DNA of 64,000 bases from Candidatus Moanibacter sp. (GTDB lineage: Bacteria > Verrucomicrobiota > Verrucomicrobiia > Opitutales > UBA2987), in the NCBI GenBank assembly GCA_965226025.1, contig CBDDCD010000001.1:74104-138103 (forward strand), in the 5' to 3' direction. A model generated the notes under the pieces. The model worked only from the letters and a program-made list of their open reading frames with translations. It had not been told where the DNA came from and searched no databases. Shown piece by piece: positions 21,176-58,752 of the stretch. The position numbers were made by a program, and so were the translations under genes. Within the stretch, counting starts at the first letter, position 1. Each line of letters starts with the position of its first letter.

Positions 21176-21246
21176 TTGGACATTTTCGCAGAGGGTTTGA
21201 GCTTTCCTGCGGATCTCGTAACTCGCGCAGACAGAAATCCGGGATG

Positions 21247-24146: not shown

Positions 24147-24189
24147 GAAGCCTCGCTATCTGATTCAAATACAAGGGATTGTGTAACTA

Positions 24190-24423: not shown

Positions 24424-25326
24424 TCACCAGGTTGATCCCTGTGGGTTGGAATCTCCCAAGGCCGCGGTCTTAACTTTCTCGGATTCAAGCTTGTTAAAGA
24501 AGATACGGCCCGCATCCGAGATAGTGTATTGAGAAGGACCTGTCCTGCTGAGCAGGCCGAGCCTGTAAAGCTGATCAGTTTCAGATCGGGCAAAACGGCC
24601 AGAACCTCTGTCGAAAAGTTGATCTCGATTTTCTTCCATCCATTCGAGCAGACCTTTATCGATCACGATATCCCTTAGTTCAGCGAAAGTGAGCCCATTA
24701 AGTAGCGTGTCTTGCCTACCACTTTCAACCTGGCTTCGTAGCAGGGAGTTCTCGCGACTCAGCCGGGTGATCTCATCGGTTACTGCAGGCATGTTCACCT
24801 GTGTCGAGGATCGTACCCAGCCTTCGAGATCTTCGCGACGAGAGAATTCACCGAGGGTCTGATGTATCGACAGCTGGATATCCTTCTCATCGTTCCAAAA
24901 TCCCACTGTCTTTTTTTGAACCAGATCTCGAAACTCTGCGAGTTTATCAGCTTCTTCGGTCTCCCTGGCTTCGGGTCCCAGACGGCGAACTTTCTCATCA
25001 AGCGCTGGCTGCTCGATCACACAGGAAAACAGAGCCAATCCTTTTTCCAAAGCGTATTTATACTCCACTTCTATGTAGCTTCTGCCTGTTTTCGGGTCGA
25101 TACTACCGTATCGACCTGCCAGGATCAGGAGGAACACGTCTGATTGGTTGATCCACTGCTTTATGACCTCCATCTGCGACTCATCGCCAGCTGCAAAAAG
25201 CTCCATACCAGCGGGAATGTGTCCAGCCGACAAGATTGCCTCGACTCCCGCCTGCCTTTCCACTTTTAGATCGGTGTACGTTGAGGAGACAAATACCTGC
25301 AGGCGTTTTTTAAGGAAGTCGACCAT
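24424..25326 (-). CDS. DUF4062 (TIR-like) domain protein with a helical/wHTH-like C-terminus (300 aa)
   Basis: The N-terminus 'VFVSSTYTDLKVERQAGVEAILSAGHIPAGMELF' matches the DUF4062 signature. Confidence 0.7.
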   Translation of the reverse strand: MVDFLKKRLQVFVSSTYTDLKVERQAGVEAILSAGHIPAGMELFAAGDESQMEVIKQWINQSDVFLLILAGRYGSIDPKTGRSYIEVEYKYALEKGLALFSCVIEQPALDEKVRRLGPEARETEEADKLAEFRDLVQKKTVGFWNDEKDIQLSIHQTLGEFSRREDLEGWVRSSTQVNMPAVTDEITRLSRENSLLRSQVESGRQDTLLNGLTFAELRDIVIDKGLLEWMEENRDQLFDRGSGRFARSETDQLYRLGLLSRTGPSQYTISDAGRIFFNKLESEKVKTAALGDSNPQGSTW

Positions 25327-25405
25327 AGGACGATTGTCGGAATTTCCCCCTTCCTTTCAAGGGAGTCAATCTACTTAGAGATCGTCGCGAATGAGCTTTG
25401 ATTCT

Positions 25406-25575
25406 TCAGCTGCCGAAAAGTTCCAGCTGCGAGATTTGTGTCATCTTGCGGCGGCGGGGGGGGGGCGGACGAGGCGGTTGGCTTCGGCGAGGATGTAGAC
25501 GGTTTGATCCGTGGCTTCCTTGATTCGGCGAGATGCGTCGAGAGCGAGGTCGATGGCGTTGCGGATGTGCTTCAT
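25406..25575 (-). pseudogene. inter-cassette module copy R5: micro-ORF with ATG, out of frame at a C10/G10 tract
   Basis: 'MKHIRNAIDLALDASRRIKEATDQTVYILAEANRLVRPPP' runs into the homopolymer. The conserved tail 'RRRKMTQISQLELFGS*' is in the +1 frame. Confidence 0.5.
25456..25465. repeat. G10 (C10 on coding strand) homopolymer inside micro-ORF copy R5
   Basis: Counted directly: 'gcggcggcGGGGGGGGGGcggac'. Confidence 0.9.
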
Positions 25576-25745
25576 GAGCCTTGCAAAGAAGCTTGAGCAT
25601 TCGCGAATTAGGACGGAATAGAGCGGAAGTCAGCGAATAGCAACGGGTTAGGGGACTCATGGGGTGAGAGATCGAGTTTGAGCACTTTGGGGCTATATTT
25701 TAGGGGGTTTGCACATGGTTTGAGCACTTTTCGAGTTATTGCAAG
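25576..25745 (-). promoter_or_regulatory. upstream half of module with box repeats
   Basis: 'GGTTTGCACATGGTTTGAGC' at 25706-25725, 'CGAGTTTGAGC' and 'AGCAACGGGTTAGG'. Confidence 0.4.
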
Positions 25746-25774
25746 GAGTCCGATAGACAGTTTCTGGACGATTG

Positions 25775-26200
25775 CTAACCAACCGGTTGGTTATCTTTCG
25801 CTCTAGGAGTTTCAGAACGAGGTGGGGCGGCGGCCGCACTGTCTTCAGCCTCTTGTACGTCAATTCTCTGCCGGATTGCTCTCACCACCTCAGCGATCGG
25901 TGTGCGCGTCCGCCACCAGGAGATTAAGAGATATACGCCCATCAGATTCCCAACCACGGAGACGACTATACACAAATTCTCAGCGATCTGACTCCGAAAG
26001 GTTGCCGTACACAGGGCCAATATACTTGAGAACGCCATTGTCAGCAGAAAGACCGCGAAATTCAGCTGGATTGATGCGGGGGACCCTTTCTCAAGCAGGT
26101 CCAGTTCGTTTTCCTTGACTTCAAAAAGGTCGACGGATGCGACTCGACCTCGTCGCACTTGGAGAGGCTTGCTATCCGTTGGGTGTGAGGGAGAACTCAT
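25775..26200 (-). CDS. hypothetical 2-TM protein (141 aa), cassette cargo
   Basis: TM segments are 'FAVFLLTMAFSSILALC' and 'LCIVVSVVGNLMGVYLLISWW'. Its start lies 1 nt after the stop of the upstream ORF. Confidence 0.55.
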   Translation of the reverse strand: MSSPSHPTDSKPLQVRRGRVASVDLFEVKENELDLLEKGSPASIQLNFAVFLLTMAFSSILALCTATFRSQIAENLCIVVSVVGNLMGVYLLISWWRTRTPIAEVVRAIRQRIDVQEAEDSAAAAPPRSETPRAKDNQPVG

Positions 26201-26201
26201 C

Positions 26202-26471
26202 CTATAGATTCTCCCTCAGCCACTTGTCGTATGCCTCGCCGAAGCTATTGAACCAAGCTGCTTCAGTACCAGATCTGACCACGAAGACGCGTTCTCCTTG
26301 GTCAAGGACATTCTGGATTTTGTCCCTAATCTCGACGGCCCTCTGTTCTGTGTTAATCGCCCAACAGTGGTCGTGTATGGGACAATAGTAACGATAGGAT
26401 TTCAGAAATTCCTGCACCTTATCATTGGATGCCTCAGAGTTCGTCTGAAATGTAACGATGTAGCAGGTCAT
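26202..26471 (-). CDS. hypothetical small soluble protein (89 aa), cassette cargo, translationally coupled to the 2-TM gene
   Basis: A compact ORF with alternating beta/alpha-like sequence. I recognise no family. Confidence 0.5.
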   Translation of the reverse strand: MTCYIVTFQTNSEASNDKVQEFLKSYRYYCPIHDHCWAINTEQRAVEIRDKIQNVLDQGERVFVVRSGTEAAWFNSFGEAYDKWLRENL

Positions 26472-26745
26472 CGCGATTCCTTTCCTATAGCTGTCAACAT
26501 GGAAATCTCGTCATTTGGAGAGGGTTGGTCGAGCAGGTCTTCGATGCTCTTCAGGCATAGAAGTGGCTTTCTTGCAGCATTTCAAGGGTCTTTGAGGAGT
26601 TTCTATGGTAAAGAGCCTGAGAGTCCAAATGAGATCCTCAGCATCGACTTTCCTGCACACTTTCTTGTCCTTTTACGCGTAGCTTTGTCGTCGCACTTCA
26701 AAGATGGGCAGTCGCGAGCGAATCCGTCGGGCGAGGAAAGTGAGC

Positions 26746-26830
26746 TTAGAATAGCTCGAGTTGGAGGTCTTTGGGGATTGTTTGCGGGGGCGGTGGGGTC
26801 GGATGAGGCGGTTGGCTTCGGCTAGGAGTT
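26746..26830 (-). repeat. truncated and frameshifted module copy R6 (3' ~85 bp only)
   Basis: 'LAEANRLIRPHRPRK', then a frame change, then 'QTIPKDLQLELF*'. Confidence 0.6.
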
Positions 26831-27108
26831 ACACGGTCGAGTCTAACGCTCATCGAATGGAAAATTTGGAACTTGGGTATTTGTGGGACCACTGAAGCTC
26901 GGAAAATTTGGGACAGAGGGCGCGTTTCCCATGTTTCTTTTTCTACGCTTTCTCCAATATCAGGAGAATCTAAGAGCTCCTTTCCGTCATCCTCAATACT
27001 CCGCGCCATCGGCGATTCTCGTCACATTTATTCTTACCGCCATTCTGAAACGGTCTACCTGCCGATCATAAAAGTATGTAAACATTTGAATAGAAATGTC
27101 TGACAAAA

Positions 27109-27136
27109 TGGCGGAGAGGGCGGGATTCGAACCCGC
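27109..27136 (-). other. tRNA-Ser-like 3' fragment (complete T-arm, acceptor, CCA), not a complete tRNA
   Basis: The reverse complement is 'GCGGGTTCGAATCCCGCCCTCTCCGCCA'. No matching 5' acceptor or foldable anticodon arm lies in the next 100 nt. Confidence 0.6.
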
Positions 27137-27440
27137 GGAACTCACTCAGCGGAGTCATGAGGATTGCGAGCTCCCAGCAGAGCGCTATAGCCGATTAGCA
27201 GGGATGAAGGTGTGCTCGAGCTAATCTGATCAATGCGTTCCAGGATTTTGGTAACGAATGTTTCCTACCCGGGAAGGCGACTTACTTCCTCTTGAGAGTC
27301 CAGATTCTGTTAGACGGAAATCCTGCCGCCTCCCGATTTCTGGCCGGCCCAAGTGGCCTCGAGCCCAACCTTCTCGCAACGTTCGCGAGCGTTCCCCTTA
27401 ATGGGAGAATCCTGAATAGGAAGAAAAGAGTTTGAGATCG

Positions 27441-28445
27441 ATGTCACCAGGGAAGCGAATAAACGGGAAGCCAGTCTATACAGTCCGTGCGAAATCGATA
27501 ATCAACTTTAACAGCGGATTCAGGCACAAGCTACTGTGTGATGGCCTGACCTTCAGCACCGGGACGGCCTGTGCCTTCAAATGCGCGTATTGCTATGTTG
27601 GGCCGATGATGGCTCGGAATCCTCAGACTAATCTCCTCAGAGATCAGGGACTTGCGCACAGCGAAGTGGTGATCCGAAGAAAAAATCCTTTAACGATTCT
27701 CGGACAGCAGCTCTTGGATTCGAAAGGCCGAGCCAAGTTCCTGGAAGACCCGAATGACCGGAGAGTGATTTACGCCAGTCCTCTTGTTGATGTAGCAGCG
27801 AATATGGAGCTGGTACAGGAAACGATCGTAGCCTGTCGAATTATCCTGGATCTGACCCATTGGCAGATTCGCCTCCTTTCGAAATCCAGTCTGCTTCTGA
27901 AAGTGGCAGAAGGACTACAAGATGCTGACAGAAAAAGGGTCATTTATGGATTCTCTACCGGCAGCACCGACGATGGTTTGGCGCGCTCATTTGAGGAAGG
28001 AACGCCGTTGGTCAGCAAGAGGCTGAAGGCTCTACGCACCTTGCAGGATGAAGGATTCCGAACATACGGGATGATCTGCCCGAGTCTGCCTCAGAAGGAC
28101 TATCGAGCTTTCGCTGCTGATATCGCGAGAGCCATACGGTATGAGAAATGCGAGCACGTCTGGGCTGAAGTCATCAACGTCCGTGGCCAATCCATGGTCC
28201 GAACTTGCAGCGCTTTATCCCGGGGAGGGTATCCAGAGGAGGCGGAGATGTTGAGATCGGTAAGTACGGACCGGAGACTCTGGGAAGAATACGCGCGAAA
28301 CACATTCCTCGCCCATACCGATTTTATCCCTCCAGAGAAATTATGGTTTCTGCAGTACGTGGCTGAACGAAACCTCAGCTGGTGGCGAGACCAAGTATCG
28401 AAAGGCGCTGTGTTGCTTGGGAAAGCAGGACAGCAGACGAAATGA
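27441..28445 (+). CDS. radical SAM protein (SplB/DNA-photolyase-like family)
   Basis: The CX3CX2C motif is 'CAFKCAYCYV'. The size is ~335 aa. A TTG at 27432 is an alternative start. Confidence 0.55.
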   Translation: MSPGKRINGKPVYTVRAKSIINFNSGFRHKLLCDGLTFSTGTACAFKCAYCYVGPMMARNPQTNLLRDQGLAHSEVVIRRKNPLTILGQQLLDSKGRAKFLEDPNDRRVIYASPLVDVAANMELVQETIVACRIILDLTHWQIRLLSKSSLLLKVAEGLQDADRKRVIYGFSTGSTDDGLARSFEEGTPLVSKRLKALRTLQDEGFRTYGMICPSLPQKDYRAFAADIARAIRYEKCEHVWAEVINVRGQSMVRTCSALSRGGYPEEAEMLRSVSTDRRLWEEYARNTFLAHTDFIPPEKLWFLQYVAERNLSWWRDQVSKGAVLLGKAGQQTK

Positions 28446-39077: not shown

Positions 39078-39145
39078 GATGCTGTCGGACTTCTTGCGCC
39101 TTTCTTTCCTGCCGACAGCGCCGGATAGTGCAACCGTCAGGATTT

Positions 39146-39206
39146 GACGTTGGACGTTGAGCGTTGGATGTTGAACCCAGCCCTTATTCAACATCCAACA
39201 TCCAAG
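39146..39206. repeat. 'TTGGACGTTGAGCGTTGGATGTTGA' repeat with an 11-bp hairpin (TTGGATGTTGA/TCAACATCCAA)
   Basis: A second copy in reverse orientation is at 50371-50407. Confidence 0.6.
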
Positions 39207-39225
39207 TAACTTTGGCCGTAGCGCC

Positions 39226-39263
39226 CAAATAAATCGACGGCCGTCGATTTATTTGTCACATTG
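39226..39263. promoter_or_regulatory. operator-like perfect palindrome 'CAAATAAATCGACGG|CCGTCGATTTATTTG' plus 'TCACATTG', just upstream of the HDAC-like gene
   Basis: The 38 nt are identical to 46305-46342. The palindrome centre is 33 nt upstream of ATG 39273. Confidence 0.55.
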
Positions 39264-39272
39264 CAGACAACG

Positions 39273-40208
39273 ATGGACGGCGCATTCATCTACCACCCTG
39301 ACTATGAGTTACACGACACCGGTAGCCTTCATCCGGAGACCCCAGGGCGAGCCAAGGTTGTCCAGGAACACATCAAGGGAAGCCGAATTGCGGAGAGTCT
39401 CGAATTCATTGAGCCAGATCCGGCTGGACTTGAGTGGATCACACTCAATCACAGCCAAAAGTATGTAGAATCGGTCGAAGGTGCGGTCGGTTGTGGGCGA
39501 ACCGTCCTCGATTTCGGTGATACGCGAATTTCGACGGACTCCTTCCGGGTGGCGCGGTTGGCAGTGGGTGGAGCCCTTGCTGGTGTAGATGCGGTTCTTG
39601 AGCATGGGTATCACTTCGCCTTCTCCTGCGCCCGGCCGCCCGGGCATCACGCACGTCCAGAGGCGGCGATGGGTTTCTGTCTCTTCAACAACATTGCGAT
39701 TGCGGCCAGGTATGCTTTGCAGCGCCACGGTCTTGAAAGAGTATTGATCGTGGATTGGGATGTGCATCACGGAAACGGGACGCAGGAGAGTTTCTACGAG
39801 GAGAATTCAGTTTACTTTTTCAGCCTTCACCAGTTCCCCTATTACCCCGGCTCCGGTGCGGCTACCGAAATCGGGAGTGGGAAAGGTTCCGGTTTCACCC
39901 GAAACGTCCCAATGCCGGCAGGAACAGGGATGACCGATTATCGTAAGGCATTTGAGGAGATCCTTGTTCCCGTGGCAGCGGAATTCGCTCCCCAGCTCAT
40001 TCTGATCTCGGCGGGTTTCGACGCCCACGAGGCAGATCCCTTGGCCGGGATCAATCTGTCCGAGGAGGACTTTGCAGAACTGACGGGAAGAATCAGGGCA
40101 TTGGCCCAATCCCATTGCCAAGGTCGGATCGTCTCGATCATGGAAGGGGGTTACAACTTGAGAGCCTTGGCCGGGTCGGTGGAGGCTCACCTAGAGGCAC
40201 TACTTTAG
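39273..40208 (+). CDS. histone deacetylase-family (acetoin utilisation/acetylpolyamine amidohydrolase-like) protein
   Basis: 'HPETPGR', 'RPPGHHA', 'DWDVHHGNGTQ' and 'SAGFDAH'. The in-frame TTG at 39261 is an alternative start. Confidence 0.88.
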   Translation: MDGAFIYHPDYELHDTGSLHPETPGRAKVVQEHIKGSRIAESLEFIEPDPAGLEWITLNHSQKYVESVEGAVGCGRTVLDFGDTRISTDSFRVARLAVGGALAGVDAVLEHGYHFAFSCARPPGHHARPEAAMGFCLFNNIAIAARYALQRHGLERVLIVDWDVHHGNGTQESFYEENSVYFFSLHQFPYYPGSGAATEIGSGKGSGFTRNVPMPAGTGMTDYRKAFEEILVPVAAEFAPQLILISAGFDAHEADPLAGINLSEEDFAELTGRIRALAQSHCQGRIVSIMEGGYNLRALAGSVEAHLEALL

Positions 40209-40371
40209 GATCCTTTCCGGAGAGATGCGGATTCCACTGTTGTGCTTTTGGATTTCCTTCCGAATTCTGACCCTTAGGCCGATGTTGGAGCTCCCCGATC
40301 TTTGTCGCGACAAAGGGGCTAACGCCGGAGACAGGGACAGATTCGGATTAGATAACTTCACACTCTTAGAA

Positions 40372-41187
40372 ATGGCTGAAGGTATGGAAGCGCAAAAAGG
40401 AAGTCGAACGGTCAAGGCTTACCGGAATCGGGAGTTTCTGAATTCGGTATCGGCACGGTCGATTAGGGTGCAGTGCGAACTGAGCGAACCGAAGAAGCGC
40501 CTTGAGGAAAAGGGAGTATACAACACGATTGTATTCTTTGGTTCGGCTCGAATTCGAGAGGAGGGGATAACTTCTGAGCAAGGGCAACCCACCCCTGCGC
40601 CCCCCAAGGAGGGGATACCCACCCCTAACCCCTCCGAGGAGGGGAATGTGAATTACTATGATGCGGCACTCAGGCTGGCGAAGGAGCTGACGGAGTGGTC
40701 CCTGAAGATCGAGAATCCGAAGCATCGGTTTTTTATCTGTTCCGGAGGCGGGCCGGGGATCATGGAGGCGGCCAATCGGGGGGCGAGTGAGGCGAGTGGA
40801 GAATCCATTGGATTGGGGATCAGCCTGCCCCATGAACAATCTAACAATGCCTACGTTTCCGATGATCTGAGTTTCGAATTTCACTATTTTTTCATCCGGA
40901 AATATTGGTTCCTTTACCATGCCAAGAGTTTTGTGATCTTCCCCGGCGGCTTCGGAACCTTAGACGAAATGTTTGAAACGCTGACCCTGCTTCAGACCGG
41001 AAAGATAGGAAAGTACATGCCGATTGTTCTCTTTGGTTCCGAGTTTTGGAACTCCGCGGTAAATTTTGAGTTTCTGAGGGAGCGAGGAGTCATCTCGCAA
41101 AAGGATCTGGAACGATTCAGGATCATCGACTCGGTGGAGGAGGCGAGGGATTATATCGTGGGGGAACTGACGCGGATCTACTTATAG
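40372..41187 (+). CDS. LOG-family (TIGR00730) Rossmann-fold nucleotide-binding protein
   Basis: 'GGGPGIMEAANRGA' and 'PGGFGTLDE'. The ATG at 40372 was chosen over the long upstream in-frame extension. Confidence 0.82.
   Translation: MAEGMEAQKGSRTVKAYRNREFLNSVSARSIRVQCELSEPKKRLEEKGVYNTIVFFGSARIREEGITSEQGQPTPAPPKEGIPTPNPSEEGNVNYYDAALRLAKELTEWSLKIENPKHRFFICSGGGPGIMEAANRGASEASGESIGLGISLPHEQSNNAYVSDDLSFEFHYFFIRKYWFLYHAKSFVIFPGGFGTLDEMFETLTLLQTGKIGKYMPIVLFGSEFWNSAVNFEFLRERGVISQKDLERFRIIDSVEEARDYIVGELTRIYL
40582..40645 (+). repeat. two tandem REP-like units inserted in frame inside the LOG gene
   Basis: 'GGGCAACCCACCCCTGCGCCCCCCAAGGAGGGGA' followed by 'TACCCACCCCTAACCCCTCCGAGGAGGGGA' encodes 'GQPTPAPPKEGIPTPNPSEEG'. 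Confidence 0.7.
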
Positions 41188-41221
41188 CCCAAATCCCGGA
41201 GAAATTTAGGCGGTCTCCTGG

Positions 41222-42004
41222 TCAGACGCGTCCCTGGAAGGATTTCCCTCGCACCTGTTTGAATGGCGGCATCTTGGGGGCGTCGGTAACGGTTTCGTCC
41301 TTGAATGAGTTTGCCCGCATGTAATGGGTGGCGTAACCCCGGCGCCGGAGGCCGGATAGGTTGGCGTTGCTCTGGTGGAGCACGAGGCTGTGATGGAAAC
41401 TGATGCTGCCGCGCGGTAGTGGAGCCGGTTCCACCGGCCACCTCCGTGCATCCAGGTCGTCCGTGAAGGGCTCGAGTCGGGGTCCTCTGAGCATTCCCCA
41501 TCGCTGGGTGCCGAGGGCGAAGTTGAGGCAACCGTTTTCCATTGTGGCGTCATCGATCGCGGTCCAGGCCGTGACCAAGTCCATGGGGAGAATGTCACGC
41601 CAAGAAGCGGAGTCCTGGTGCCACGGCTGCGCGCTGCCGGTCTTCGGCGATTTCATGAAGAGCTGATCTCCGTAGAGCTTGATGTCATGCGAGCCCAGGA
41701 GGTCGGCAATGATGTCGACGACCCTTGGGTTCGAAACGTGAGCCCACATCGTGTCGTCGTAAACGGCGAGGTTGTATAGTTTTCGGACGGCAAGGACTCG
41801 ATCCTGAACCGTCTGTTTTCCCACTCGGAACACCGGCTCGAGTTGGATGCTCGTATCGGGAATGTGGTCCAATCGACCCGAAGCGATGAGGTCGCAGTGA
41901 TCTCCGAGGGTGCCGACCTCTGATGCGGACAGCACATTCTCGACGACGAGGTAGCCGTTCAATCGAAACTGTTTGATTTGGTCCTGGGTTAGCGACTTGG
42001 GCAT
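41222..42004 (-). CDS. phytanoyl-CoA dioxygenase (PhyH) family protein
   Basis: The N-terminus 'LTQDQIKQFRLNGYLVVENVLS' and the 'WHQD...H' layout fit the family. Confidence 0.75.
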   Translation of the reverse strand: MPKSLTQDQIKQFRLNGYLVVENVLSASEVGTLGDHCDLIASGRLDHIPDTSIQLEPVFRVGKQTVQDRVLAVRKLYNLAVYDDTMWAHVSNPRVVDIIADLLGSHDIKLYGDQLFMKSPKTGSAQPWHQDSASWRDILPMDLVTAWTAIDDATMENGCLNFALGTQRWGMLRGPRLEPFTDDLDARRWPVEPAPLPRGSISFHHSLVLHQSNANLSGLRRRGYATHYMRANSFKDETVTDAPKMPPFKQVRGKSFQGRV

Positions 42005-42449
42005 CGCGAGGCGAATTTAGATCTCTTCAACTTAAGGTTGAACAACAGAACTAAGGTTTCTGAATCATTTCATGTCAAAGGAGAATCCGGAGGATAAAGG
42101 AGCGGTTTCCCGAATCTTGCCCCGGAGGAAAATAGGAAGGAGGTGATTGTCGACTCAGCAATGTAGCCGCGGCTGCGAGGACGTGGTTGGTAGTAACGAT
42201 TTTCCTTCATCCACTCAACCGCTTTCTTGCGACCGCCGCTACAAGGGTGTGTCATCCCGATTCGTTCCGCGTTCCGAGGCCACGGACCACCAGTTCTTGA
42301 CCGTTCCGATTCTCAAGATATCTAACCGGCCCCCAACCGGCAGAATTCGACTGTCGCTTTGGGCATGTCGATTGGGGAAGCATGGATATCGATCCGGGCA
42401 AATCGATATTCGTAATCTCAAGCGAAATCGAAACTCGAAATCGAGATTC

Positions 42450-43286
42450 CTACGTCTGAGCAAACTTGTCGTATTCAGCGTTGATCCGATCCGGTTCGCC
42501 CGCACCGGAGTGGACGAAGATCCGATACTTGAGGTCGAGTTGGTCCCCGACATTGAGTTCGACCGGCCCGGTGAAATAGTTGTAGTTGGGTGAGAGGGGA
42601 CCATAATCCCTGGAAAACCAGTGAGCCTGGACCGGGTTTGAGGGGTGATCCAGTAGGGAGATCCCGATCAAGCGGCCGTCCGTTTCGGCCGTTTCGTCAA
42701 TCCATCGTGCGGGTTTGCCAAACATCGCTTTTTCGCCTCGACGTCCTTCGCTGTCGGTCAAGACACCGCCGTGGTTAGCCGTCAACCAATCGGCCGGCCG
42801 GACTAACGGCATCCCGGATTCGTTGGTGGGGTGAAAGACCACCTTCTGATCGACGGGTCGCAAACTGATAGCCGTGTCGAGGTAAAGTTCACCGTCCTCC
42901 AGGAGCTCCCATCGGTAGGAGCGGTGGTCGGTGATAAGAGCGTTACGGTCGGGCGCGATCCACTCGCTATCGTGGGCCAAAACAGCAACGTTATCCTCGG
43001 TATCGGTTTGCAGATCGCCCACCAGATTGATCTGGCCCAGGTTGCGCTTGTCCCGGTAGAGGTAGAAGTCGAGGTCGTCGTTGACGACGCCGTGTGAGAA
43101 GCAAACCCCGTGATGGTGCAGGTGATCGGCCGGTTGGTTTTCCAGCACGTTCCGTTTGCCCGGCCCTAAGAGACAGGTGATATGCGGGTGCAATTCCGGA
43201 TACCACGCATATCGCGAAATGGTGCCTATGTCCTCCGCGCGGATGTTCATCACATGAGGGTTTTCCTGCGCAAAGCTAAGTTGCAT
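42450..43286 (-). CDS. PmoA-like/DUF6807 family protein
   Basis: 'DHLHHHGVCFSHGVVND.DFY' resembles the family that often accompanies Gfo/Idh/MocA genes. This is from memory, not a search. Confidence 0.5.
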   Translation of the reverse strand: MQLSFAQENPHVMNIRAEDIGTISRYAWYPELHPHITCLLGPGKRNVLENQPADHLHHHGVCFSHGVVNDDLDFYLYRDKRNLGQINLVGDLQTDTEDNVAVLAHDSEWIAPDRNALITDHRSYRWELLEDGELYLDTAISLRPVDQKVVFHPTNESGMPLVRPADWLTANHGGVLTDSEGRRGEKAMFGKPARWIDETAETDGRLIGISLLDHPSNPVQAHWFSRDYGPLSPNYNYFTGPVELNVGDQLDLKYRIFVHSGAGEPDRINAEYDKFAQT

Positions 43287-43682
43287 GACGTTTCTTTTCT
43301 AAGGATCAGGTCGAGAAAACGGCAAGATGTATCAAATTCGGGGAATGGATGCCAATGGGATTCTTACCAGCCAATCCTGGTGGGGACGTGCAACCCACCC
43401 GGCGTGGTGGGCTTCTGGAGTCGGTTGCAGGCCGACGTCGCGGATCTGACGCTTCAGGCCGCGCTGGAAGGTAGTCTCGATAAGCTGATCCAAGCTCTCA
43501 GCCTCGATCCGGCAAGCGGACTGGCCGACTTTTCGCAACTGCCGCAGTTAGCGGACGACTTGCTTCTGGCGAATCGGGACTGGCTGCCGAGGTTCTTTGA
43601 GCAGTAAGTTCGTGCAAATTTGGAGGTGACTTCAACGAGAAGATTCGTAGTATTCAACTCCGTAGCAAAATTTAAGATCAGC

Positions 43683-44681
43683 ATGAAAAAGACCTTGTTA
43701 TACGTACTTTTCGCCTTCCAAGCCGGTAGCCTCCTCTTTGGTGGGGTCGGTTTCGTGGTATCATCCACAGAGCTAATTACAGGTGAGACCAGCAAAACCG
43801 AAATGCATGCTCAGTGGCCGTGGCTGAAGATCGAAATTCCCCCGGGAGAAGGAGAGAAGTCAGAGGGCTCGATGACTTATAATGCTGAGCGCAAGGAATT
43901 GATCGTGAATCAAGGATCCGAGGCCTACAGAGTGACTGAGAATTCCTTCAAGAGTCACAATGTTCAAAGTTTTCAACCGCAACTGGATGAAATTCGACGA
44001 CGCATGGCTGAAGCATATGAAAAGGTTCCCAAGGACCAGCTGCACATGCTTGATGGCTTGATTCCCGAAGAATACCGACCCTCAGGAACTCCTTATGGTC
44101 AATCCACAAACACTGAAACGGAAATCAGAAAAACGAACCGTAAGGGAAAGGAAAACGGTTTTTCATATACGGTCTATGAGGTTTGGCGCGGTGGAAGGAA
44201 GATTTTCGAACTCCATGTTACAGACTGGGGTGAAATTATAAACGGCAATGAAATAAGAAAGCTTATAGTAGGCTTTGCTGAATTTCTTACGGATTTGCAG
44301 GATTCCATGATGGGTGGAAAGGACAATCCATTCAGCCATAATAATATGTTTACCTACTTCAAGAAAGTAGATGGATATATCTCTGGAGGAAAGGATTTTG
44401 AGGACAACAGTTCCTTCCAGCTCGTATCCGTAGAAAAGAGAAAATTCCCGCCCGGATACTTCGCTGTCAAGGGTCCGGTGAGAGACATGGGGGCGGCCAT
44501 GGGCTCTCTTCAAGGAGATCTATACAGAAGTATGCAACAACGTCCGGCCGACTCTGGAAATAACATCCGCAAAGGTTACCCGCGCTATCCAACGGGTGGA
44601 TCCGGCAATCAGAATAGGGCAATCGAAGGCGACCGAGCGGTAACGGCCCCTGGAACTGCTACCTCTCAGGAGGGCAACTAA
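43683..44681 (+). CDS. hypothetical secreted protein
   Basis: Signal-peptide-like 'MKKTLLYVLFAFQAGSLLFGG'. I recognise no family. Confidence 0.55.
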   Translation: MKKTLLYVLFAFQAGSLLFGGVGFVVSSTELITGETSKTEMHAQWPWLKIEIPPGEGEKSEGSMTYNAERKELIVNQGSEAYRVTENSFKSHNVQSFQPQLDEIRRRMAEAYEKVPKDQLHMLDGLIPEEYRPSGTPYGQSTNTETEIRKTNRKGKENGFSYTVYEVWRGGRKIFELHVTDWGEIINGNEIRKLIVGFAEFLTDLQDSMMGGKDNPFSHNNMFTYFKKVDGYISGGKDFEDNSSFQLVSVEKRKFPPGYFAVKGPVRDMGAAMGSLQGDLYRSMQQRPADSGNNIRKGYPRYPTGGSGNQNRAIEGDRAVTAPGTATSQEGN

Positions 44682-44693
44682 CCCTGGATTGTA

Positions 44694-44788
44694 GGGCGAC
44701 CCACCCTAAACCCCTCCCAGGAGGGGATTTTCCAGAATCGGAGCTAAACTGTTAGATCCCCTCCTGGAAAGGGTAGGGGGTGGGTTGC
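44694..44788. repeat. inverted pair of REP-like 'CCCACCC..CCCCTCC..GGAGGGG' elements
   Basis: Copies lie at 44694-44727 (forward) and 44757-44788 (reverse), between convergent genes. Confidence 0.65.
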
Positions 44789-44793
44789 ACTAA

Positions 44794-45981
44794 TCACCTC
44801 GCTGCTAGACCCATCGCTCCCAGCGTCTCATAGCAAGCGGCCAGCGGGTGATAGTCCGTCTTGGAGGCCGGACTCTTCAGGTCGTCATACTTTTGATTGT
44901 CGGCATTCAAGATTCGGTACCATCCGCCGTACTCATGATCCACGAAATGTCGATCGGAGAATGACCAAGTTTTGTCGTACCAATCCCAATAAACCGGATC
45001 ACCGGTTCTAAGGGCCAGAAGGGCGGCGGCGGCAAAGGTTTCGGACAAGACCCAGTAGTACCGATCGGTGTCGAGGATACGCCCATCGGGCGAAAAGGTG
45101 TAATGCATTCCCCCCTTTTGGTCATCCCAACTCTTTTCCAGGGCGACGTCGAAAAGGCTACGGGCGTGCTCCAACATCCAGTCTTCCGGGCGGTAGCGCT
45201 CCAGAATGAGCAGCAGCTTGGCCCATTCCGTAAAATGACCCAGTAGATAGCCGTAGGGCTTGAACAGATTTTTTGGATCGTCCTTGTTGTAATCCCAATC
45301 GTGGGACCAATCGGTCTGGTAGTGTTCCCAGATCAATCCGTCCGCTTTCTCGGCCAAATCGACGCAAATACGTTTGGCCAAAAGGTGGGCCCGGTCCAGG
45401 AACTTCACTTCATTCGTGGCCTCAAAGGCTAACAGCATCGCCTCGCACATATGCATATTGGAGTTCTGGCCGCGGTAGGGCTCAATCGCATGCCAGCCGC
45501 CGGCCGCGATCTCATCGACATAGAGTTCGGCATCCGGCTCCCAGAAACGCTCCTCCAGTAGATCGTAGACCTGAGAGGCAAGCGCGGCGGCACCCCCAAC
45601 ACCGGCTTTTGTGGCGCCCGCGGCAGCAACCAAGGTAAAGGCGTGCCCGTAGCAATGGCGCGTATCGTCTTCGACCTCGCGACCCTGCAGGACCCAGGCG
45701 AAGGCGCCGTCGGGTTGTCGGTGCACCTCCTGGAGGAAACGCAAGCCGTGGGCCGCAGCCTCCTGGTAGGCCGAATCGTTCAGGACCAGGTAGGCCAGCG
45801 AATAGTTGTAGATGAAGCGGCACGTGCCAACAAGATGCTTCGTCTTCCGATCGAAGATCGAGCCGTCATCGCGGAGCTGGTTGATGTAGCCGCCGAACTC
45901 GTTATCGATACAGACCGGATGGTAGAACGAGATGATGCGCCGGATATGATCGCGCAGAAATTCAGATTCACGGTAAGACAT
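44794..45981 (-). CDS. N-acylglucosamine 2-epimerase (AGE) superfamily protein
   Basis: 'FYHPVCIDNEFGGY' with repeated alpha/alpha-barrel W/H motifs. The start is set at Met49 ('MSYRESEF') of the tracked ORF. Confidence 0.78.
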   Translation of the reverse strand: MSYRESEFLRDHIRRIISFYHPVCIDNEFGGYINQLRDDGSIFDRKTKHLVGTCRFIYNYSLAYLVLNDSAYQEAAAHGLRFLQEVHRQPDGAFAWVLQGREVEDDTRHCYGHAFTLVAAAGATKAGVGGAAALASQVYDLLEERFWEPDAELYVDEIAAGGWHAIEPYRGQNSNMHMCEAMLLAFEATNEVKFLDRAHLLAKRICVDLAEKADGLIWEHYQTDWSHDWDYNKDDPKNLFKPYGYLLGHFTEWAKLLLILERYRPEDWMLEHARSLFDVALEKSWDDQKGGMHYTFSPDGRILDTDRYYWVLSETFAAAALLALRTGDPVYWDWYDKTWSFSDRHFVDHEYGGWYRILNADNQKYDDLKSPASKTDYHPLAACYETLGAMGLAAR

Positions 45982-46299
45982 GCTAACGGCGTCAGGCAAT
46001 TGGTCGAAGACATCGAAATCTACATGGCCGAAAGGAACCTGAACTCCAAGCCCTACAGATGGAAGGCAAAGGGAGAGGAAATCCTGGGCAAAATCCAACG
46101 CGCAAAAAATGCCTTGGAAAAGCAACAGGAAGTAAACACATAATTTGGCTTAATTATCGGACGTCACACTACGGACCCGGTGAAGTCGAGGTGATACCTT
46201 ATCATTTTGGGACTCGCTACCGCCATTCCAGAGTCCAACTTCAGGGCTTTCAGAAAGAGCCACAAGATCCCCTCCATAGCCCCTACGGCATCCTCACCC

Positions 46300-46342
46300 T
46301 GTGACAAATAAATCGACGGCCGTCGATTTATTTGTCACATTG
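46300..46342. promoter_or_regulatory. 40-bp perfect palindrome 'TGTGACAAATAAATCGACGG|CCGTCGATTTATTTGTCACA' upstream of the PaaX-like regulator
   Basis: It lies in a divergent promoter region. The centre is 29 nt upstream of ATG 46348. The core is identical to 39226-39263. Confidence 0.6.
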
Positions 46343-46347
46343 ATGAT

Positions 46348-47154
46348 ATGGATTGGGTTCCGTTTCACCATCCGGATATTTCTCTACCGGTTCTACAGCG
46401 GCGACTCAGTGAGGAATTGCTGGACGTTTTGTCCATCCTTGGAAGCCCTTCGCCTCTAATAATGTTGGGGCGGATGCAATCCAGCTACCCTTCGCGAAGA
46501 GCCTATGATCGGGCCATCGATCGACTGAGGAGGAAGGGATTTATCGCCTACCGACGGGAAAAGGGACTGGATCCTGTTCTCGAACTGACGGCGGAAGGGA
46601 AGGCCCGGAGGCCGGAAGCCCTGCGACCAGGGAGACATTGGGACAAGAGTTGGAATGGGATTTGGTACGTCTTGGTCTATGATGTTTCTGAATCCAACCG
46701 GAGGTATCGGGAGGTCCTGCGGGTGCTTCTTCGTAAATTGCACATGGGTTGTCTCCAGGGAAGTGTCTGGGTCACACCCAATGACATCCGTCCTGATTAC
46801 GATGATTTGGATCGATCGGCCGGACTCGGAGGCTATGCCTTTCTGTTCGAATCACGGACTGTCCTTGGCCAACCTGCGGAAGATATTGTGGATCAAGCTT
46901 GGGACTTCGATCGCATTGAAGAAGCGCAGAAGTTCTATCAGCAAGTATTTGCGGAGAACCTAAGGCGCCTGAAAAACGCCACAGTCTCCAAGGAGGAGAT
47001 TGTAGATCTCGCTCGAAAGGAAATTGATGCTTACCTGTCCGTGATGAAACACGACCCTCTCCTCCCTCGTGACCTGTGGCCGGCGGGATACATGGGAGAA
47101 GAGATTTTCCTAATTCACCAGGAGTTCATAAGATTCGCCCGCGGGCGAATCTAG
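46348..47154 (+). CDS. PaaX-family transcriptional regulator
   Basis: 'WNGIWYVLVYDVSESNRRYREVLRVLLRKLHMGCLQGSVWVTPND' is typical of the PaaX middle domain. Confidence 0.68.
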   Translation: MDWVPFHHPDISLPVLQRRLSEELLDVLSILGSPSPLIMLGRMQSSYPSRRAYDRAIDRLRRKGFIAYRREKGLDPVLELTAEGKARRPEALRPGRHWDKSWNGIWYVLVYDVSESNRRYREVLRVLLRKLHMGCLQGSVWVTPNDIRPDYDDLDRSAGLGGYAFLFESRTVLGQPAEDIVDQAWDFDRIEEAQKFYQQVFAENLRRLKNATVSKEEIVDLARKEIDAYLSVMKHDPLLPRDLWPAGYMGEEIFLIHQEFIRFARGRI

Positions 47155-47418
47155 TCAGCGCGGTCGCTGACCACGCTAGAGCATCAAACCAATGTGACAG
47201 TCAATCGGCAATGTAGCCTTGGTCGTGAGGGACTACGTGGAGAGACTAAGTGTTGCGGACGAAGTGTGGGGACTAAATGTGAGTATTCTGAACACTGAAA
47301 CCTGAAATCCGAAACCTATAAACTCCTTTCGACTTTTGATCCGGACTGGACGCTTCAGAATCTGTTCAAGTGACCGAGTCTTGACGGATTGTAGAACAGA
47401 GCCGGCGACATTAATTCG

Positions 47419-48933
47419 CTAGGACTCTTTGCTTAGCAAGTCCTTGGCGCATATCAGCAGATTGGCGGCCAGACCGATAATACCGGCGTGAAAGCCCCAC
47501 AGGGTCTTGTAGTTTTGTTGGGCAATGCCGAGCGACGCTGCAAAGGTGAGTCCGAGGCTGATCAGGCAGCCAACGAGAATCCCCGCCAAGACCGTGTGCC
47601 CTCGCAATTTTCCCCAGTAGCAGCCTAGAAAGAAAGCGGGGACGCACTGTACCAGCATCTCGAATTTGATTTCGATCAGCCGGATGAGATTTCCCTGGTA
47701 TTCGAGTGCGAACCAAACCAGGGGAAGGATCAATATCCAGACCGCCAACCTGCCCACAAGAGTCAGATGACGCTCGCTTGAATCCGGTTTGAGGTAGGGT
47801 TTGTAGATATCATGGATCACCATGGAGCTGATACTCAGAATGGCCGAATCGGCGGTCGACATGATGGCGGTTAGCACGGCCGCGAAAATAGCGACGACAA
47901 GCCAGTATCCCAGCGTGGAACTCTGCATCACCTGAAGGCACAGCAGGGGAAGGACGGTTTCCGAAATATTGACGTTTCGAGGCGTTTCCCCGGCCTGGTC
48001 TAACCTATCCAACCCGGGATGGTAGGCGGCCATGATGATTCCAAGCGTGACGACAACCAGAGTGGTTACCAGCGGCATGAACGCCATAACGGACAGAGAT
48101 TTCTTCAGGACCTGCACGCTCCCGGCAGCGTAGATGCGTTGAATTGCTTGAGGGTAAATCGCGCCACCGAATCCAACCAGGAGGATGAAGCTGAGCCAGT
48201 AGCGACAGCCTGACGGGTCGGGGCGGGCGATTTTGTGCGCGGTCTCCGGATTCTCAGCGAGGATGGCCACCGCCTCCGGAAAGGTGCCTACTTCGATCAA
48301 GGTGAGCACTAGAATGAGGGCGAACCCAAAGAGAAGAATGACACCCTGAATCGCATCCGTCCAAGCAACGCTGCGCATCCCTCCCAATGTTTCATAAGCC
48401 AGCATCACTACCGCGAGACCGACCACCCCGACCCACATGGGTATGCGACCCTGAGAAATCCCATCAAATGCCGTTCCCAGGGCCTTCATTTGTGCAATCA
48501 CAAAATTGCATAGCACAAACAGCATGATCAGAGTCACGATGAGCTGAAGAGTTCGATGGTTGAAGCGCTGGGCGATGAAATCTGCCGGCGTGACAAACTC
48601 ATGCTCGCGGCTGAGCCTGAAAAGCGCCGGGGCATAGAGCAGGTAGGCAACCACGATGGCGGTCATGAAGTGAAGACAGACCAGAAAGCCCAGGCCGTTT
48701 CGATAAGTGGCGCCGCTGAAACCGAACAGGGTGTTGCCGCTGTATTGAGTCGCGTAAAGGGTGAGGAGCAAGACCAGGAAACCCATGCCTCGGCCCGCCA
48801 GATAGAAATCGCTCGGGCTCTCTTCCTGTCGCTTGAGATAGCCCAGGTACCCGACCCCAAGCAGACTCAATACGTAGATGCCCACTACCCCAAGCGCGCC
48901 CGGGCCAAAGGGGAGACTCTCAATCAGATTCAT
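47419..48933 (-). CDS. sodium:solute symporter (SSS) family transporter
   Basis: About 13 hydrophobic segments, plus 'FYLAGRGMG' and 'GGMRSVAWTDAIQG'. The start is set at 'MNLIESL'. Confidence 0.85.
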   Translation of the reverse strand: MNLIESLPFGPGALGVVGIYVLSLLGVGYLGYLKRQEESPSDFYLAGRGMGFLVLLLTLYATQYSGNTLFGFSGATYRNGLGFLVCLHFMTAIVVAYLLYAPALFRLSREHEFVTPADFIAQRFNHRTLQLIVTLIMLFVLCNFVIAQMKALGTAFDGISQGRIPMWVGVVGLAVVMLAYETLGGMRSVAWTDAIQGVILLFGFALILVLTLIEVGTFPEAVAILAENPETAHKIARPDPSGCRYWLSFILLVGFGGAIYPQAIQRIYAAGSVQVLKKSLSVMAFMPLVTTLVVVTLGIIMAAYHPGLDRLDQAGETPRNVNISETVLPLLCLQVMQSSTLGYWLVVAIFAAVLTAIMSTADSAILSISSMVIHDIYKPYLKPDSSERHLTLVGRLAVWILILPLVWFALEYQGNLIRLIEIKFEMLVQCVPAFFLGCYWGKLRGHTVLAGILVGCLISLGLTFAASLGIAQQNYKTLWGFHAGIIGLAANLLICAKDLLSKES

Positions 48934-49171
48934 GGTTGTCGTTGGACCTCTCCTCTTCGGAATCCGGCCAGGAACAGAAAATAACAAAGGTGGCAAAAAG
49001 GCTCAGGAGGACACTCATGAAAACCGCGAATGCAGCCCAGGTGGGGACTCCAAAAATGAGCCCTTCGATCGGCCACATGGGAATCAGCCCGGCGAGCAGG
49101 AGGAGGAATGCGACCCATACCCATGGTCTCTGGGCAGGATCGCGATTGTTGGGGGCGGAGTTTTGATTCAT
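48920..49171 (-). CDS. DUF3311-like small membrane protein accompanying the SSS transporter
   Basis: 83 aa with 2 TM. It lies immediately upstream of the symporter gene and overlaps its start. Confidence 0.6.
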   Translation of the reverse strand: MNQNSAPNNRDPAQRPWVWVAFLLLLAGLIPMWPIEGLIFGVPTWAAFAVFMSVLLSLFATFVIFCSWPDSEEERSNDNHESD

Positions 49172-49787: not shown

Positions 49788-50414
49788 ATGTTCTCCAGAA
49801 CGATAGACGATAAGACCCACGTAAGTCTCGCTGTTCCGCAATTCGCGGATGAGCTATTCAGGCTTACCGATAAGAATCGCGCCTTCCTGCGGCGTTGGCT
49901 CCCCTGGCTGGATGGCGTAAAGAAGGCTGGGGATACCGAGAGCTTCATAAAAGGTGAGCTGGCCAAGTTCGCCCGTGGCGAAGCTCTGACCGAGACGGTT
50001 TTGCACGAGGGACGTATCGCCGGCGTCCTGGGATTCAACTCGATTGAGCGATCCAACCGAATCGGATACATCGGCTATTGGCTAGGCGAGGAGTTCAATG
50101 GACGTGGCATTATGACGGCGTGCGTGCGGGATCTCATCAGCTTGGGAACGGAGTACTATTCGTTAGAGAGGTTCGATATTCGATGCGCGGTCCAGAATGA
50201 AAAGAGTAGGGCGATACCGGAAAGGCTGAGGTTTTCGGAGGAATGCACGCTCCGGAGAGCTGAGAAAGTAAACGACAGTTGGTACGATCACGTGGTCTAT
50301 GGGCTCCTTGTAAATCAACACAACGAAGAAGGCAGTTCAAGTGGCAAAGGAGACGCACGCAGAAATGAGCATCAACATCCAACGCTCAACGTCCAACATC
50401 CAACGTCGAAGTGA
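49788..50414 (+). CDS. GNAT family N-acetyltransferase (RimJ/RimL-like)
   Basis: 'IGYWLGEEFNGRGIMT' is acetyl-CoA motif A. The last ~15 codons run into the 50371-50407 repeat. Confidence 0.78.
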   Translation: MFSRTIDDKTHVSLAVPQFADELFRLTDKNRAFLRRWLPWLDGVKKAGDTESFIKGELAKFARGEALTETVLHEGRIAGVLGFNSIERSNRIGYIGYWLGEEFNGRGIMTACVRDLISLGTEYYSLERFDIRCAVQNEKSRAIPERLRFSEECTLRRAEKVNDSWYDHVVYGLLVNQHNEEGSSSGKGDARRNEHQHPTLNVQHPTSK

Positions 50415-56750: not shown

Positions 56751-56932
56751 GGAACCCTTGAGCGTGTCAAAGACTCTAATCGATTCGACCTTGAGCCTAC
56801 CTGCCTCAGTCCATTCATATAGAAGGGAGAAAATCATGGAACGAGTCGAATTGATCAAACCGGATTTCCCTAAAGACGCTTTTGCCGGCACAGCGACCTA
56901 CTATGCCCGCTACCGAGTAGCCTATCCTAAAG

Positions 56933-58752
56933 TAGAGGCTGTCCCAAATCCGAGAGGATTTGGGTGGAAGCCTGATACCGATATCAATCTTCGTCACGTT
57001 ATGTAGACCACGACATGCCTTCCGTCCTCGGTAGCTTACCTTTTATCCGTTATGCACCTTTCCAGCACCCTTCCTCTCGCTTTGAGTCGATAGTTCTCCC
57101 AAGGAAGCGCCTCTGACTCGATTCTTGGATCCCTATGCCGCCTGCGTTGCCTCTTTCTCATGTTCTTGCGCAAGTCTCTGCGCGATTTTCCATAGATTGT
57201 GGGACAGAACCGACCAGGCCACGCTAAGGTTACGGTTGTCAAAGCCTTTGCTGCGTATCTTGCCCCCGTGCCATCGGTTCTTGAGCACTCCGATCCGGCC
57301 TTCGGTGCTCCCTCGTCGTCGCTGCAACCGGACAAAGCGCGGCTCCTCCATCCGCTCCTTGAGCTCTTGTGGATTGCGGGGCGTAAGGGCGTCAAAAATC
57401 CCCTCTGCCTGGAGCCGCTTGCTGGCCGCCTTCGAGGCATAGCCCCGATCCCCACTGATCGCTTCGATCTTCTCCTCTAAAGCGAAGCCCTTTTGCCTCT
57501 CCAGACTTTCCCAAAGCTGCTTCAATTCGCTCGGGGCCTGCCCCCCATACAGTTTCCAGTCCAACAGATATCCCTCTGCGCTCTCGCATAAATAAAGGGT
57601 GTTGCCAAACTCCACCTCCCGATCTGCCTTGCCTCGCACGATGACGTCAATCTCAGGTTCGTAGGCGCTCAGGATCTTCTCCTCATTCTTCACCTGCCGC
57701 CCCCCTATGATCCGTTCGTGCGCCTGTTTCATGACCTGCGGTATCTGCTCTAACATACCATCCATTCGCTCGATGATTCGGCTCGCCTTCTTCTCGGTGT
57801 AATCGCTTTGCATCCACATAGCTTCCAATAAGTCACGGTGGCGAAGGGCATGGCCCTCAATCTTCTTGAGCAATAGCTTCATCCGCCGCAGGATCCCTTT
57901 ACGCGCTTTGCCCGCCTCCCGGCGCCGACGCGCATGCGTCATCTCCAGGCACCGTTTGTTCATCTCCCGAGCCAATCCCTTTGCTCCCTGGGGCATGCGC
58001 TGTTTCATTCCCGCCTGCCGGATCAGACTGATCGCCTTGAGCAGTGTTGCTCCCACATCCTTGAGCAAGACCCAGTCCACGGGCCAGTGGATGTTCGCTT
58101 CCAGGCAAGTGGCGTCGATCAGGCATTCCCTCGTATCGATCGGCTTCTCTAATCCTGCCTCACCACAATGTTCAGCATTGCCCACCACCTCGGTCATCCT
58201 TGCATGCAGCTGTCTCAGATACGCTTCGTCGAAGAATTTCGAATCCCGTTCCAGACTGCTCTTCGATATTTTCCGGATCCCGTCTACCTCACGCACCCGG
58301 CAAAAATTAGCCAGAAGCTCACTGCGTCCCAACTCCTGCGACAGACAACGAAAGGATATCCCTCCGAGTAAATGACGCACCACCTCCACCCGCAGCGCTT
58401 TTATCGCTCTTAGAGCGCGTCGCTCCCGATCCTTCCCTCCCGCTTCATCCCATCCTTCCAAGGCTTTTACGATCGCCTCCCTTTCCAGCGAGGAGTCGAT
58501 CAAAACCCGGTCAATCCGCTCCATTGTTTCCAGAAACACGGTGTAGTCTTTGCATCGAATGACTGGAGTTAGGGCTGGACGCAGGAAGCTTTGTACGGCA
58601 ATATTTTTCATGAGAAGGGCGTGCTTTGTATTTGACTAACGCAAGCATAAGCGCCCCTTTTCGCCGGATCGAGCTTTTTGCAGCTCTATCCGGCCTTTTT
58701 TTTGCCCATAACTCATTAAAATCAATTGTTTCCACCACTGGGACGGGCTCTA
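56933..58752 (-). mobile_element. 1.82-kb IS, copy A (terminal IRs TAGAGGCTGTCCCA / TAGAGCCCGTCCCA), 3-bp AAG target duplication
   Basis: The boundaries were defined by alignment to copy B. 'AAG' directly flanks both ends. Confidence 0.8.
57133..58611 (-). CDS. DDE transposase (IS4/IS5-superfamily-like, family uncertain), 492 aa
   Basis: 'SGDRGYASK' and 'STEGRIGVLKN' are DDE-type motifs. A near-identical second copy is present. Confidence 0.75.
   Translation of the reverse strand: MKNIAVQSFLRPALTPVIRCKDYTVFLETMERIDRVLIDSSLEREAIVKALEGWDEAGGKDRERRALRAIKALRVEVVRHLLGGISFRCLSQELGRSELLANFCRVREVDGIRKISKSSLERDSKFFDEAYLRQLHARMTEVVGNAEHCGEAGLEKPIDTRECLIDATCLEANIHWPVDWVLLKDVGATLLKAISLIRQAGMKQRMPQGAKGLAREMNKRCLEMTHARRRREAGKARKGILRRMKLLLKKIEGHALRHRDLLEAMWMQSDYTEKKASRIIERMDGMLEQIPQVMKQAHERIIGGRQVKNEEKILSAYEPEIDVIVRGKADREVEFGNTLYLCESAEGYLLDWKLYGGQAPSELKQLWESLERQKGFALEEKIEAISGDRGYASKAASKRLQAEGIFDALTPRNPQELKERMEEPRFVRLQRRRGSTEGRIGVLKNRWHGGKIRSKGFDNRNLSVAWSVLSHNLWKIAQRLAQEHEKEATQAA

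Follow-up and report, generated by a model that had tools for sequence, protein, structure and literature searches.

The 64,000-nt stretch analysed here (the window; G000:C1:74104-138103, from Candidatus Moanibacter sp. genome G000, 8.27 Mb, 55% G+C, 3 contigs) carries a perfect 40-bp spacerless palindrome at 46300-46339, 8 nt upstream of a gene for a PaaX-family protein. We propose that this palindrome is the cognate site of the protein encoded 3′ of it, that the two make up a gene-palindrome unit, and that the palindrome has also spread in the genome like a repetitive extragenic palindromic (REP) sequence. Judged from sequence comparison, the probability of this reading is about 0.65. That the palindrome is the specific partner of the gene behind it we hold with high confidence. 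Positions given without a contig (C1 to C3) are those of the window.

PaaX_M is encoded in exactly three genes of G000, each of which carries at its start a long spacerless palindrome of distinct sequence. P1, the window gene (46348-47154, plus strand), has a palindrome of the family that we call A, which ends 8 nt before the ATG. P2 (C1:1148876), 56% identical to P1, has a private palindrome with 29-nt arms spanning the ATG, and a related copy 96 nt past the stop codon. P3 (C3:2032539, minus strand), 27% identical to P1, has a family C palindrome with 34-nt arms, and a second family C copy stands 51 nt past its stop. The gene is placed between its own palindromes in P2, P3 and at least 12 homologues, P1 having only the upstream copy intact. 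Downstream of P1, 39 nt past the stop, a doubtful segment at 47193-47209 (TGTGACAgtcAATCGgC, plus strand) may be the decayed relic of a second copy, a reading of low confidence made by analogy with P2, P3 and the homologues, where the copy after the stop is intact.

Homologues of 38-47% identity were found in 21 of the 401 genomes of the phylum that were sampled, often as two or three paralogues; none was found in the five closest relatives, and the close relatives G001-G006 have no PaaX-like gene. In all, homologues number roughly 370 or more. Palindromes whose arms reach 16 bp or more were counted at 20 homologue loci: 27 lay within the 540 bp of flank next to the gene (2.5 per kb), and none in the other 48.6 kb of the same loci. 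Bracketing on both sides was detected by algorithm at 12 of 21 genes and at more by eye. The initial annotation had proposed looking for the site at orthologues: a palindrome at the start codon is present in all three paralogues and in most of the about 20 homologues in the phylum, each gene having its own. In the multi-paralogue genomes (G273, G418, G099 and G000) the two copies at a gene match each other and not the copies of the other paralogues. The 2.2-Mb genome G273 contains 15 sites with the common centre CTCACGATCGTGAG, six of which bracket three genes and nine of which are solo; the solo sites are of the same subtypes as the bracketing ones, and several stand directly past stop codons or between convergent genes. 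Arm identity correlates with the identity of the proteins (Mantel r=0.49, p=2e-4). P0002, the homologue nearest to P1 (64% identical), is bracketed by a family A variant with the left arm GGTGACATTAAAATCGACGG, which also occurs as a solo copy in G000 (C1:1235277). A homologue in the cultured Pontiella sulfatireligans (P0024, GCA_900890705.1) is bracketed too. The layout spans Verrucomicrobiota and Kiritimatiellota, and the gene contexts of the homologues vary.

In the window, family A is represented by two sites. The initial annotation had reported an identical 38-nt site in front of two genes, and the identity is exact: CAAATAAATCGACGGCCGTCGATTTATTTGTCACATTG occupies 39226-39263 and 46305-46342. 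The 28-nt core has two matches in the window vs none in 100 shuffles. At the second place the claimed 20+20 palindrome was verified (TGTGACAAATAAATCGACGG/CCGTCGATTTATTTGTCACA, 46300-46339, without strand); this is the family A consensus copy, and it is unchanged in six other assemblies of the species. Each arm contains an outer box, GTGACA, and an inner box, ATCGACGG, with a variable A/T-rich triplet between them. The dyad centres, which had been placed 29-33 nt before the ATG, were measured at 28.5 nt from the start codon of the PaaX-like gene (46348) and 32.5 nt from that of a histone deacetylase (HDAC)-family gene (39273). The site in front of the HDAC gene (39226-39263, likewise without strand) is a truncated solo copy, 35 nt of the palindrome plus TTG. 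Its left outer box is missing, GCGCC standing in place of the left outer arm TGTGA, and its end lies 12 nt 5′ of the HDAC ATG. The palindrome at 46300-46339 lies, as had been described, between divergent genes, an epimerase gene on the minus strand and the PaaX-like gene on the plus strand. The earlier view that it is not a terminator also holds, no terminator-like site being found in 46100-46420.

The 268-aa product of the PaaX-like gene consists of a region resembling a winged helix at the N-terminus, the Cas2-like PaaX_M domain (Pfam PF20803, E=2.9e-20) and PaaX_C (PF08223, E=8.6e-5). Against TIGR02277 it scored 53.3 bits, under the 264.55-bit cut-off, and the N-terminal Pfam PaaX model (PF07848) had no match at the gene; it therefore belongs to a distant PaaX subfamily and not to PaaX proper. 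Its only sequence matches in the PDB were Escherichia coli PaaX (8a39) and Rv0674 (3kfw), which were also the two best Foldseek matches to the AlphaFold model, with 8a39 first (E=3e-5). In an alignment of 30 homologues the invariant or nearly invariant motifs were FHHPD.SLPV.RR in the N-terminal part, RL..G in the presumed recognition helix and the Cas2-type WY.L.YD(V/I)PE...Q.SVW. The Cas2-type residues D112 and E115 are invariant in the subfamily; the YDV Asp is not kept in E. coli PaaX or Rv0674.

PaaX is the phenylacetyl-CoA-responsive repressor of E. coli and Pseudomonas. Its domains run in the same order as those of the 46348 product (DNA-binding at the N-terminus, Cas2-like in the middle, helical at the C-terminus), it is the product's best match in sequence and in fold, and in both systems the site stands at the regulator's own gene. 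The differences are that the 46348 product is only 22% identical (53 vs 264 bits, TIGR02277) and has no phenylacetate (paa) genes nearby, its neighbours being a GlcNAc 2-epimerase and a sodium:solute symporter, and that the Cas2-type YDV Asp is invariant here, not in PaaX. Moreover, the palindrome here is perfect over its full 40 bp and conserved at the centre, usually stands on both sides of the gene and has been multiplied about 40-fold. The statement of the initial annotation that the site is unlike the known PaaX operator is correct for the sequence but not for the geometry: two 6-bp inverted repeats are arranged as TGTGAC-N28-GTCACA here and as TGATTC(N27)GAATCA in E. coli (PMC9493321), a likeness of geometry only.

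Among the about 40 family A copies of the genome, 13 are perfect over 40 nt, four lack part of one side and one consists of a solo half. Gene contexts were taken from our own crude codon-usage gene calls (79% coding). None of the 40 copies lies inside a gene; 12 have divergent, five convergent and 23 tandem neighbours, and many stand directly past stop codons. The genes beside them have mixed functions (enolase superfamily, PhyH, sulfatase, fucosidase, TonB receptor, response regulator, GNAT and others), and no theme of a coherent regulon emerged beyond the general content of such a genome. The initial annotation had said that many copies in non-promoter contexts, as in another REP family, would refute its reading. 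This is what the genome shows, with about 40 copies, some of them between convergent genes; a small private regulon has no support, yet the tie to the PaaX-like gene is real. As the copies are near-identical, we conclude that they were copied and not selected as separate operators.

The family A palindrome was absent from the 40 relatives, the GTDB species representatives and the JGI metagenome contigs that were searched, and it matched no Rfam family. No direct target-site duplication, GTAG/CGTC tag or T-run was found at its copies, whose flanks differ from one another and are inverted, not direct, repeats. Six family A copies at five loci were fixed in up to six other assemblies of the species, in which insertion sequence (IS) insertions do vary. 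At the within-species time scale, family A gives no sign of ongoing movement.

In the 37 full-length copies, arm positions 2-7 (GTGACA) and 13-20 (ATCGACGG) are nearly invariant, and the variation is found at positions 8-10. Symmetric double changes, the same in both arms, were observed 22 times vs about 0.6 expected under independence. The symmetry often continues outside the element: at least four extra paired bases (at most 13) were present in the flanks of 14 of the 37 copies, vs 0.44% of random positions (binomial p ~6e-24). This pairing starts right at the edge of the element, in locus-specific DNA, and leaves no loop, from which we infer outward growth by fold-back repair. Insertion into pre-existing hairpins was considered as another source of the flank pairing and judged unlikely, since the pairing is edge-adjacent, loopless and up to 13 nt long. 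Correction of quasipalindromes by intramolecular template switching, which is said to go back to Ripley in 1982 and to later work of the Lovett laboratory, explains both the symmetric arm changes and the contiguous growth of complementarity into unique flanks. It is a mutational process and not an element, however, and does not account for spread to new loci.

At least three more families of spacerless perfect palindromes occur in G000, with 19-22-nt arms and CGGCCG or CGATCG centres; in every family, A included, the central bases are symmetric and loopless. Family B (left arm GTCACATCCAGATGTGCGG) has 16 copies (e.g. C3:365420 and C2:403517), family C (left arm CTGCAACTAAAAGTGATCCGA) has 13 (e.g. 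C3:2032590 and C3:2254383) and family D (left arm GGCGACATCTGTACTGACGG) has 14 (e.g. C1:1002701 and C2:101534). None of the B, C and D copies is inside a gene. In another organism a homologue 63% identical to P1 (P0003) is bracketed by a family-B-type palindrome, so that B and D can be seen as orphans in G000, where their partner gene is absent.

Some of the palindromes adjoin other repeats. Four family A copies (C3:1276958, C3:2111605, C2:2775636 and window 39226) are cut at the same point, after ATTTATTTG, and are joined there to GGG(TTC/CGC)T...; three of the four truncations lead into another repeat family (TTGGTGTGGGAT...CTTTGGCGCGAG). A further repeat, ending in ...GGGGAGCCTC(N)CAGGTAC, abuts the right half of CGGCCG-centred palindromes of several families (C3:314060-314247, C3:135449-135650, C3:2581367 and C3:2507701), with the junction at the palindrome centre or within a few bases of it. 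In one case it leaves a solo family A half-site (C3:314228-314247). This repeat looks like a mobile element that targets the palindromes.

These features suggest the following mechanism. The unit would typically be palindrome-gene-palindrome, each paralogue having its own palindrome sequence. A dimer of the protein would bind duplex DNA through its winged helices at the outer GTGACA boxes, 28 bp apart, and the symmetric CGACGG/CCGTCG centre would give added contacts. As the site is on or just past the promoter and adjoins the start codon, a bound dimer would act as repressor of the gene that encodes it. Duplex binding with autorepression is the most economical proposal, given a winged helix in the protein and a site that lies at the start codon, has PaaX-like geometry, keeps its boxes and is symmetric at its centre. 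In G000 the palindrome has also multiplied, as REP families do, to about 40 intergenic sites, of which the HDAC site is a solo one; these solo copies could act as extra operators or as decoys. Copying, together with fold-back (intramolecular template-switch) repair, would produce the spread, the symmetric variants and the outward growth into the flanks.

The initial annotation had seen in the site the operator of a dimeric PaaX-like autoregulator. The gene-palindrome tie across paralogues and homologues is consistent with that proposal, apart from its regulon. It had further suggested co-regulation of the deacetylase. One outer box is missing from the HDAC copy, the genes beside the copies are of mixed function and the relatives have a different hairpin at this place; co-regulation is therefore possible but unsupported.

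Several observations weigh against the mechanism. No sigma-70-like promoter was found at the site. The AlphaFold model of the protein is moderate (pLDDT 67). The five to seven copies between convergent genes and the many past stop codons have no obvious role as operators. Selection on a transcription factor site does not yield 13 identical 40-mers or symmetric double changes, and both fit a hairpin of RNA or single-stranded DNA equally. Families B and D have no cognate PaaX-like gene in G000. Finally, the correlation between protein and arm identity could reflect mere co-inheritance of linked DNA and not recognition.

REP or REPIN sequences with their RAYT gene (REPtrons) and, for TIRYT genes, 'TIRtrons' are described by Di Nocera et al. 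in 2013 (PMC3733652) and reportedly by Bertels and Rainey in 2011. As in these, one gene is flanked here by its own palindromic repeats, many solo copies are strictly intergenic, the families are species-specific with several per genome and some orphans, and other IS elements target the repeats. The partner, in contrast, is a PaaX/Cas2-like winged-helix protein and not an HUH/Y1 transposase, and the copies number in the tens, not hundreds. The repeats, too, are spacerless and perfect, without the loop and the GTAG or CGTC tag that belong to the definition of a REP as an imperfect hairpin (PMC3733652). Of the features of a REPtron, many extragenic copies and a bracketed partner gene were found, and the HUH/Y1 gene and the looped, tagged hairpin were not.

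The transposase genes of G000 were considered as sources of the palindromes. There are about 22 TnpA genes of IS200 type, which fall into two near-identical sets, and a group of about 25-30 paralogous TIRYT-like Y1_Tnp-like genes of ~335 aa. No A-D half-site was found within 600 bp of the ~31 long Y1-like genes, and none of the roughly 50 Y1 genes of the genome, including the TIRYT- and RAYT-like ones, is flanked by families A-D. The hairpins at IS200 ends are unrelated, and no IS200 copy is tied to a palindrome. A search for a parent IS ending in 20-bp terminal repeats gave none; a single solo perfect half-site exists, and it is a copy interrupted by another repeat. Origin as a miniature inverted-repeat transposable element (MITE) of a DDE insertion sequence was likewise rejected, there being no direct target-site duplication and no parent IS with the same ends. 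The copies are not intrinsic terminators, as no T-run follows the stem and the flanks differ between copies.

The strongest competitor of the autoregulator proposal, though in our view an unlikely one, agrees with it on binding and differs in the role of the protein. The PaaX/Cas2-like protein would itself copy or mobilise its palindromes, for example by cutting or nicking with its Cas2-like domain, in a partnership like that of REP and RAYT, and the bracketed gene would be the 'master' locus of selfish repeats. A gene bracketed by its own repeats with solo copies dispersed, as in REPtrons, fits this, and so do the patchy distribution of the gene with several paralogues per genome and the recent, identical copies. 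The Cas2 signature YD(V/I)..PE with Q.SVW, invariant in the subfamily and not kept in E. coli PaaX or Rv0674, also counts for it; and as no Y1/HUH gene flanked by A-D and no parent IS were found, another mobiliser is needed. We know, however, of no nuclease or recombinase activity of PaaX_M, and this domain has been described in PaaX as a dimerisation motif (PMC9493321). Presence/absence polymorphism was not seen at the five loci compared, though IS insertions vary, and the orphan families B and D persist without the gene.

A wider generalisation, which we consider possible but unlikely, is that PaaX/Cas2-like winged-helix proteins and their matched spacerless palindromes are a second type of gene-repeat partnership in bacteria, analogous to RAYT and REP but with an unrelated protein. 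The protein would recognise the palindromes and help to multiply them, and copies could found binding-site families throughout a genome (about 40 members here), some of which would outlive the gene as orphans.

Less plausible is that the functional form is a hairpin of RNA or single-stranded DNA, which would mark or stabilise transcript ends or be bound as a hairpin, the dispersed copies being REP-like stabilisers or processing sites of mRNA. RNA folding predicts a strong stem (centroid -28.8 kcal/mol, z = -4.5), the arm changes are symmetric, the complementarity reaches into the flanks, and many copies stand directly past stop codons or between convergent genes. The four bases that would form the loop are nevertheless complementary to one another, and they are conserved (as CGGCCG or CGATCG) from family to family and genome to genome. 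This conserved symmetric centre counts against a hairpin because two-fold recognition of a duplex requires it and a hairpin does not. The lack of a T-run excludes an intrinsic terminator, and the protein contains a winged helix and, in structure, matches a duplex-binding repressor best.

That the palindrome is an ordinary selfish repeat of REP or MITE type standing beside the PaaX-like gene by accident would suit its ~40 near-identical intergenic copies in every type of context and a genome rich in other repeats, IS200 copies and TIRYT-like Y1 genes, but is very improbable given that a palindrome of its own stands at the same position in each of three of three paralogues and in most homologues of the phylum (rough chance estimate for G000 alone < 1e-6) and that GTAG/CGTC tags, a target-site duplication and an associated Y1 gene are all missing.

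The origin and spread of short bacterial palindromic repeats is poorly understood beyond the REP/RAYT case. Here comparative evidence ties a protein of regulator type, not a transposase, to its own palindrome family, which has grown to tens of intergenic copies beside start and stop codons. If the protein binds the palindrome, this would be a natural case of a transcription factor site spread by copying, by which a regulator is rewired or titrated. If it helps to copy the palindromes, this would be a repeat-gene partnership of a new class and would give the Cas2 fold a new role. The layout is present in the cultured Pontiella sulfatireligans, which makes the question directly testable. A literature search found no paper linking PaaX-type proteins to dispersed palindromes. 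New here are the gene-plus-palindrome layout in large-genome Verrucomicrobiota, the full-length PaaX architecture (~270 aa), the expansion to about 40 copies, the orphan families and the cultured relative.

Candidate empty sites were compared as well. At the HDAC spacer the upstream region of the relatives is unalignable and holds a different single-copy hairpin. At the epimerase/symporter locus synteny is lost in G004. The cassette of G273 is missing from G258, but synteny breaks there.

The HDAC-family gene (39273-40208, plus strand; Pfam Hist_deacetyl, E=8e-99) lies 3′ of the truncated copy. The gene and its upstream ygjP-like neighbour are kept together in relatives that have no palindrome. 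In the window the ygjP-HDAC spacer contains, just left of the truncated palindrome (39143-39225), tandem GACGTTG-like heptamers and a hairpin with a 13-bp stem (GTTGGATGTTGAA...TTCAACATCCAAC). A related copy, 94% complementary, is found 11 kb away, at 50372-50403. In two genomes of the same genus, L001 (G001:C9:119900-119932) and L002, the spacer is only ~60 nt long and is a single-copy hairpin with a 19-bp stem, which extends from the ygjP stop codon to the HDAC ATG and has GACAAAT...ATTTGTC in common with family A.

On the other side of the palindrome at 46300-46339, the GlcNAc 2-epimerase-family gene (44794-46125, minus strand; Pfam) is divergent from the PaaX-like gene and starts 174 nt from the palindrome. 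A sodium:solute symporter gene (47419-48996, minus strand; Pfam) follows the PaaX-like gene. In two of six assemblies (L054 and L056) the spacer between the epimerase and PaaX-like genes carries a ~4.3-kb insertion with a DDE_Tnp_1 transposase and three further open reading frames, and the palindrome is unaltered in both. A second DDE insertion, 3′ of the symporter gene, likewise varies among assemblies.

Two other repeat features were noted in the window. An inverted repeat of 1792 bp (56930-58721 and 61195-62986) is 100% complementary, with the arms 2473 nt apart, and has another inverted pair, of 35 nt, on its flanks; two insertion-sequence copies in opposite orientation are the probable explanation. 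The region 19300-27500 contains five to seven diverged direct repeats of 80-155 nt (families D1, D2 and D5-D7) spaced at 0.2-4.5 kb, which may be a paralogous gene array or repeated promoter regions.

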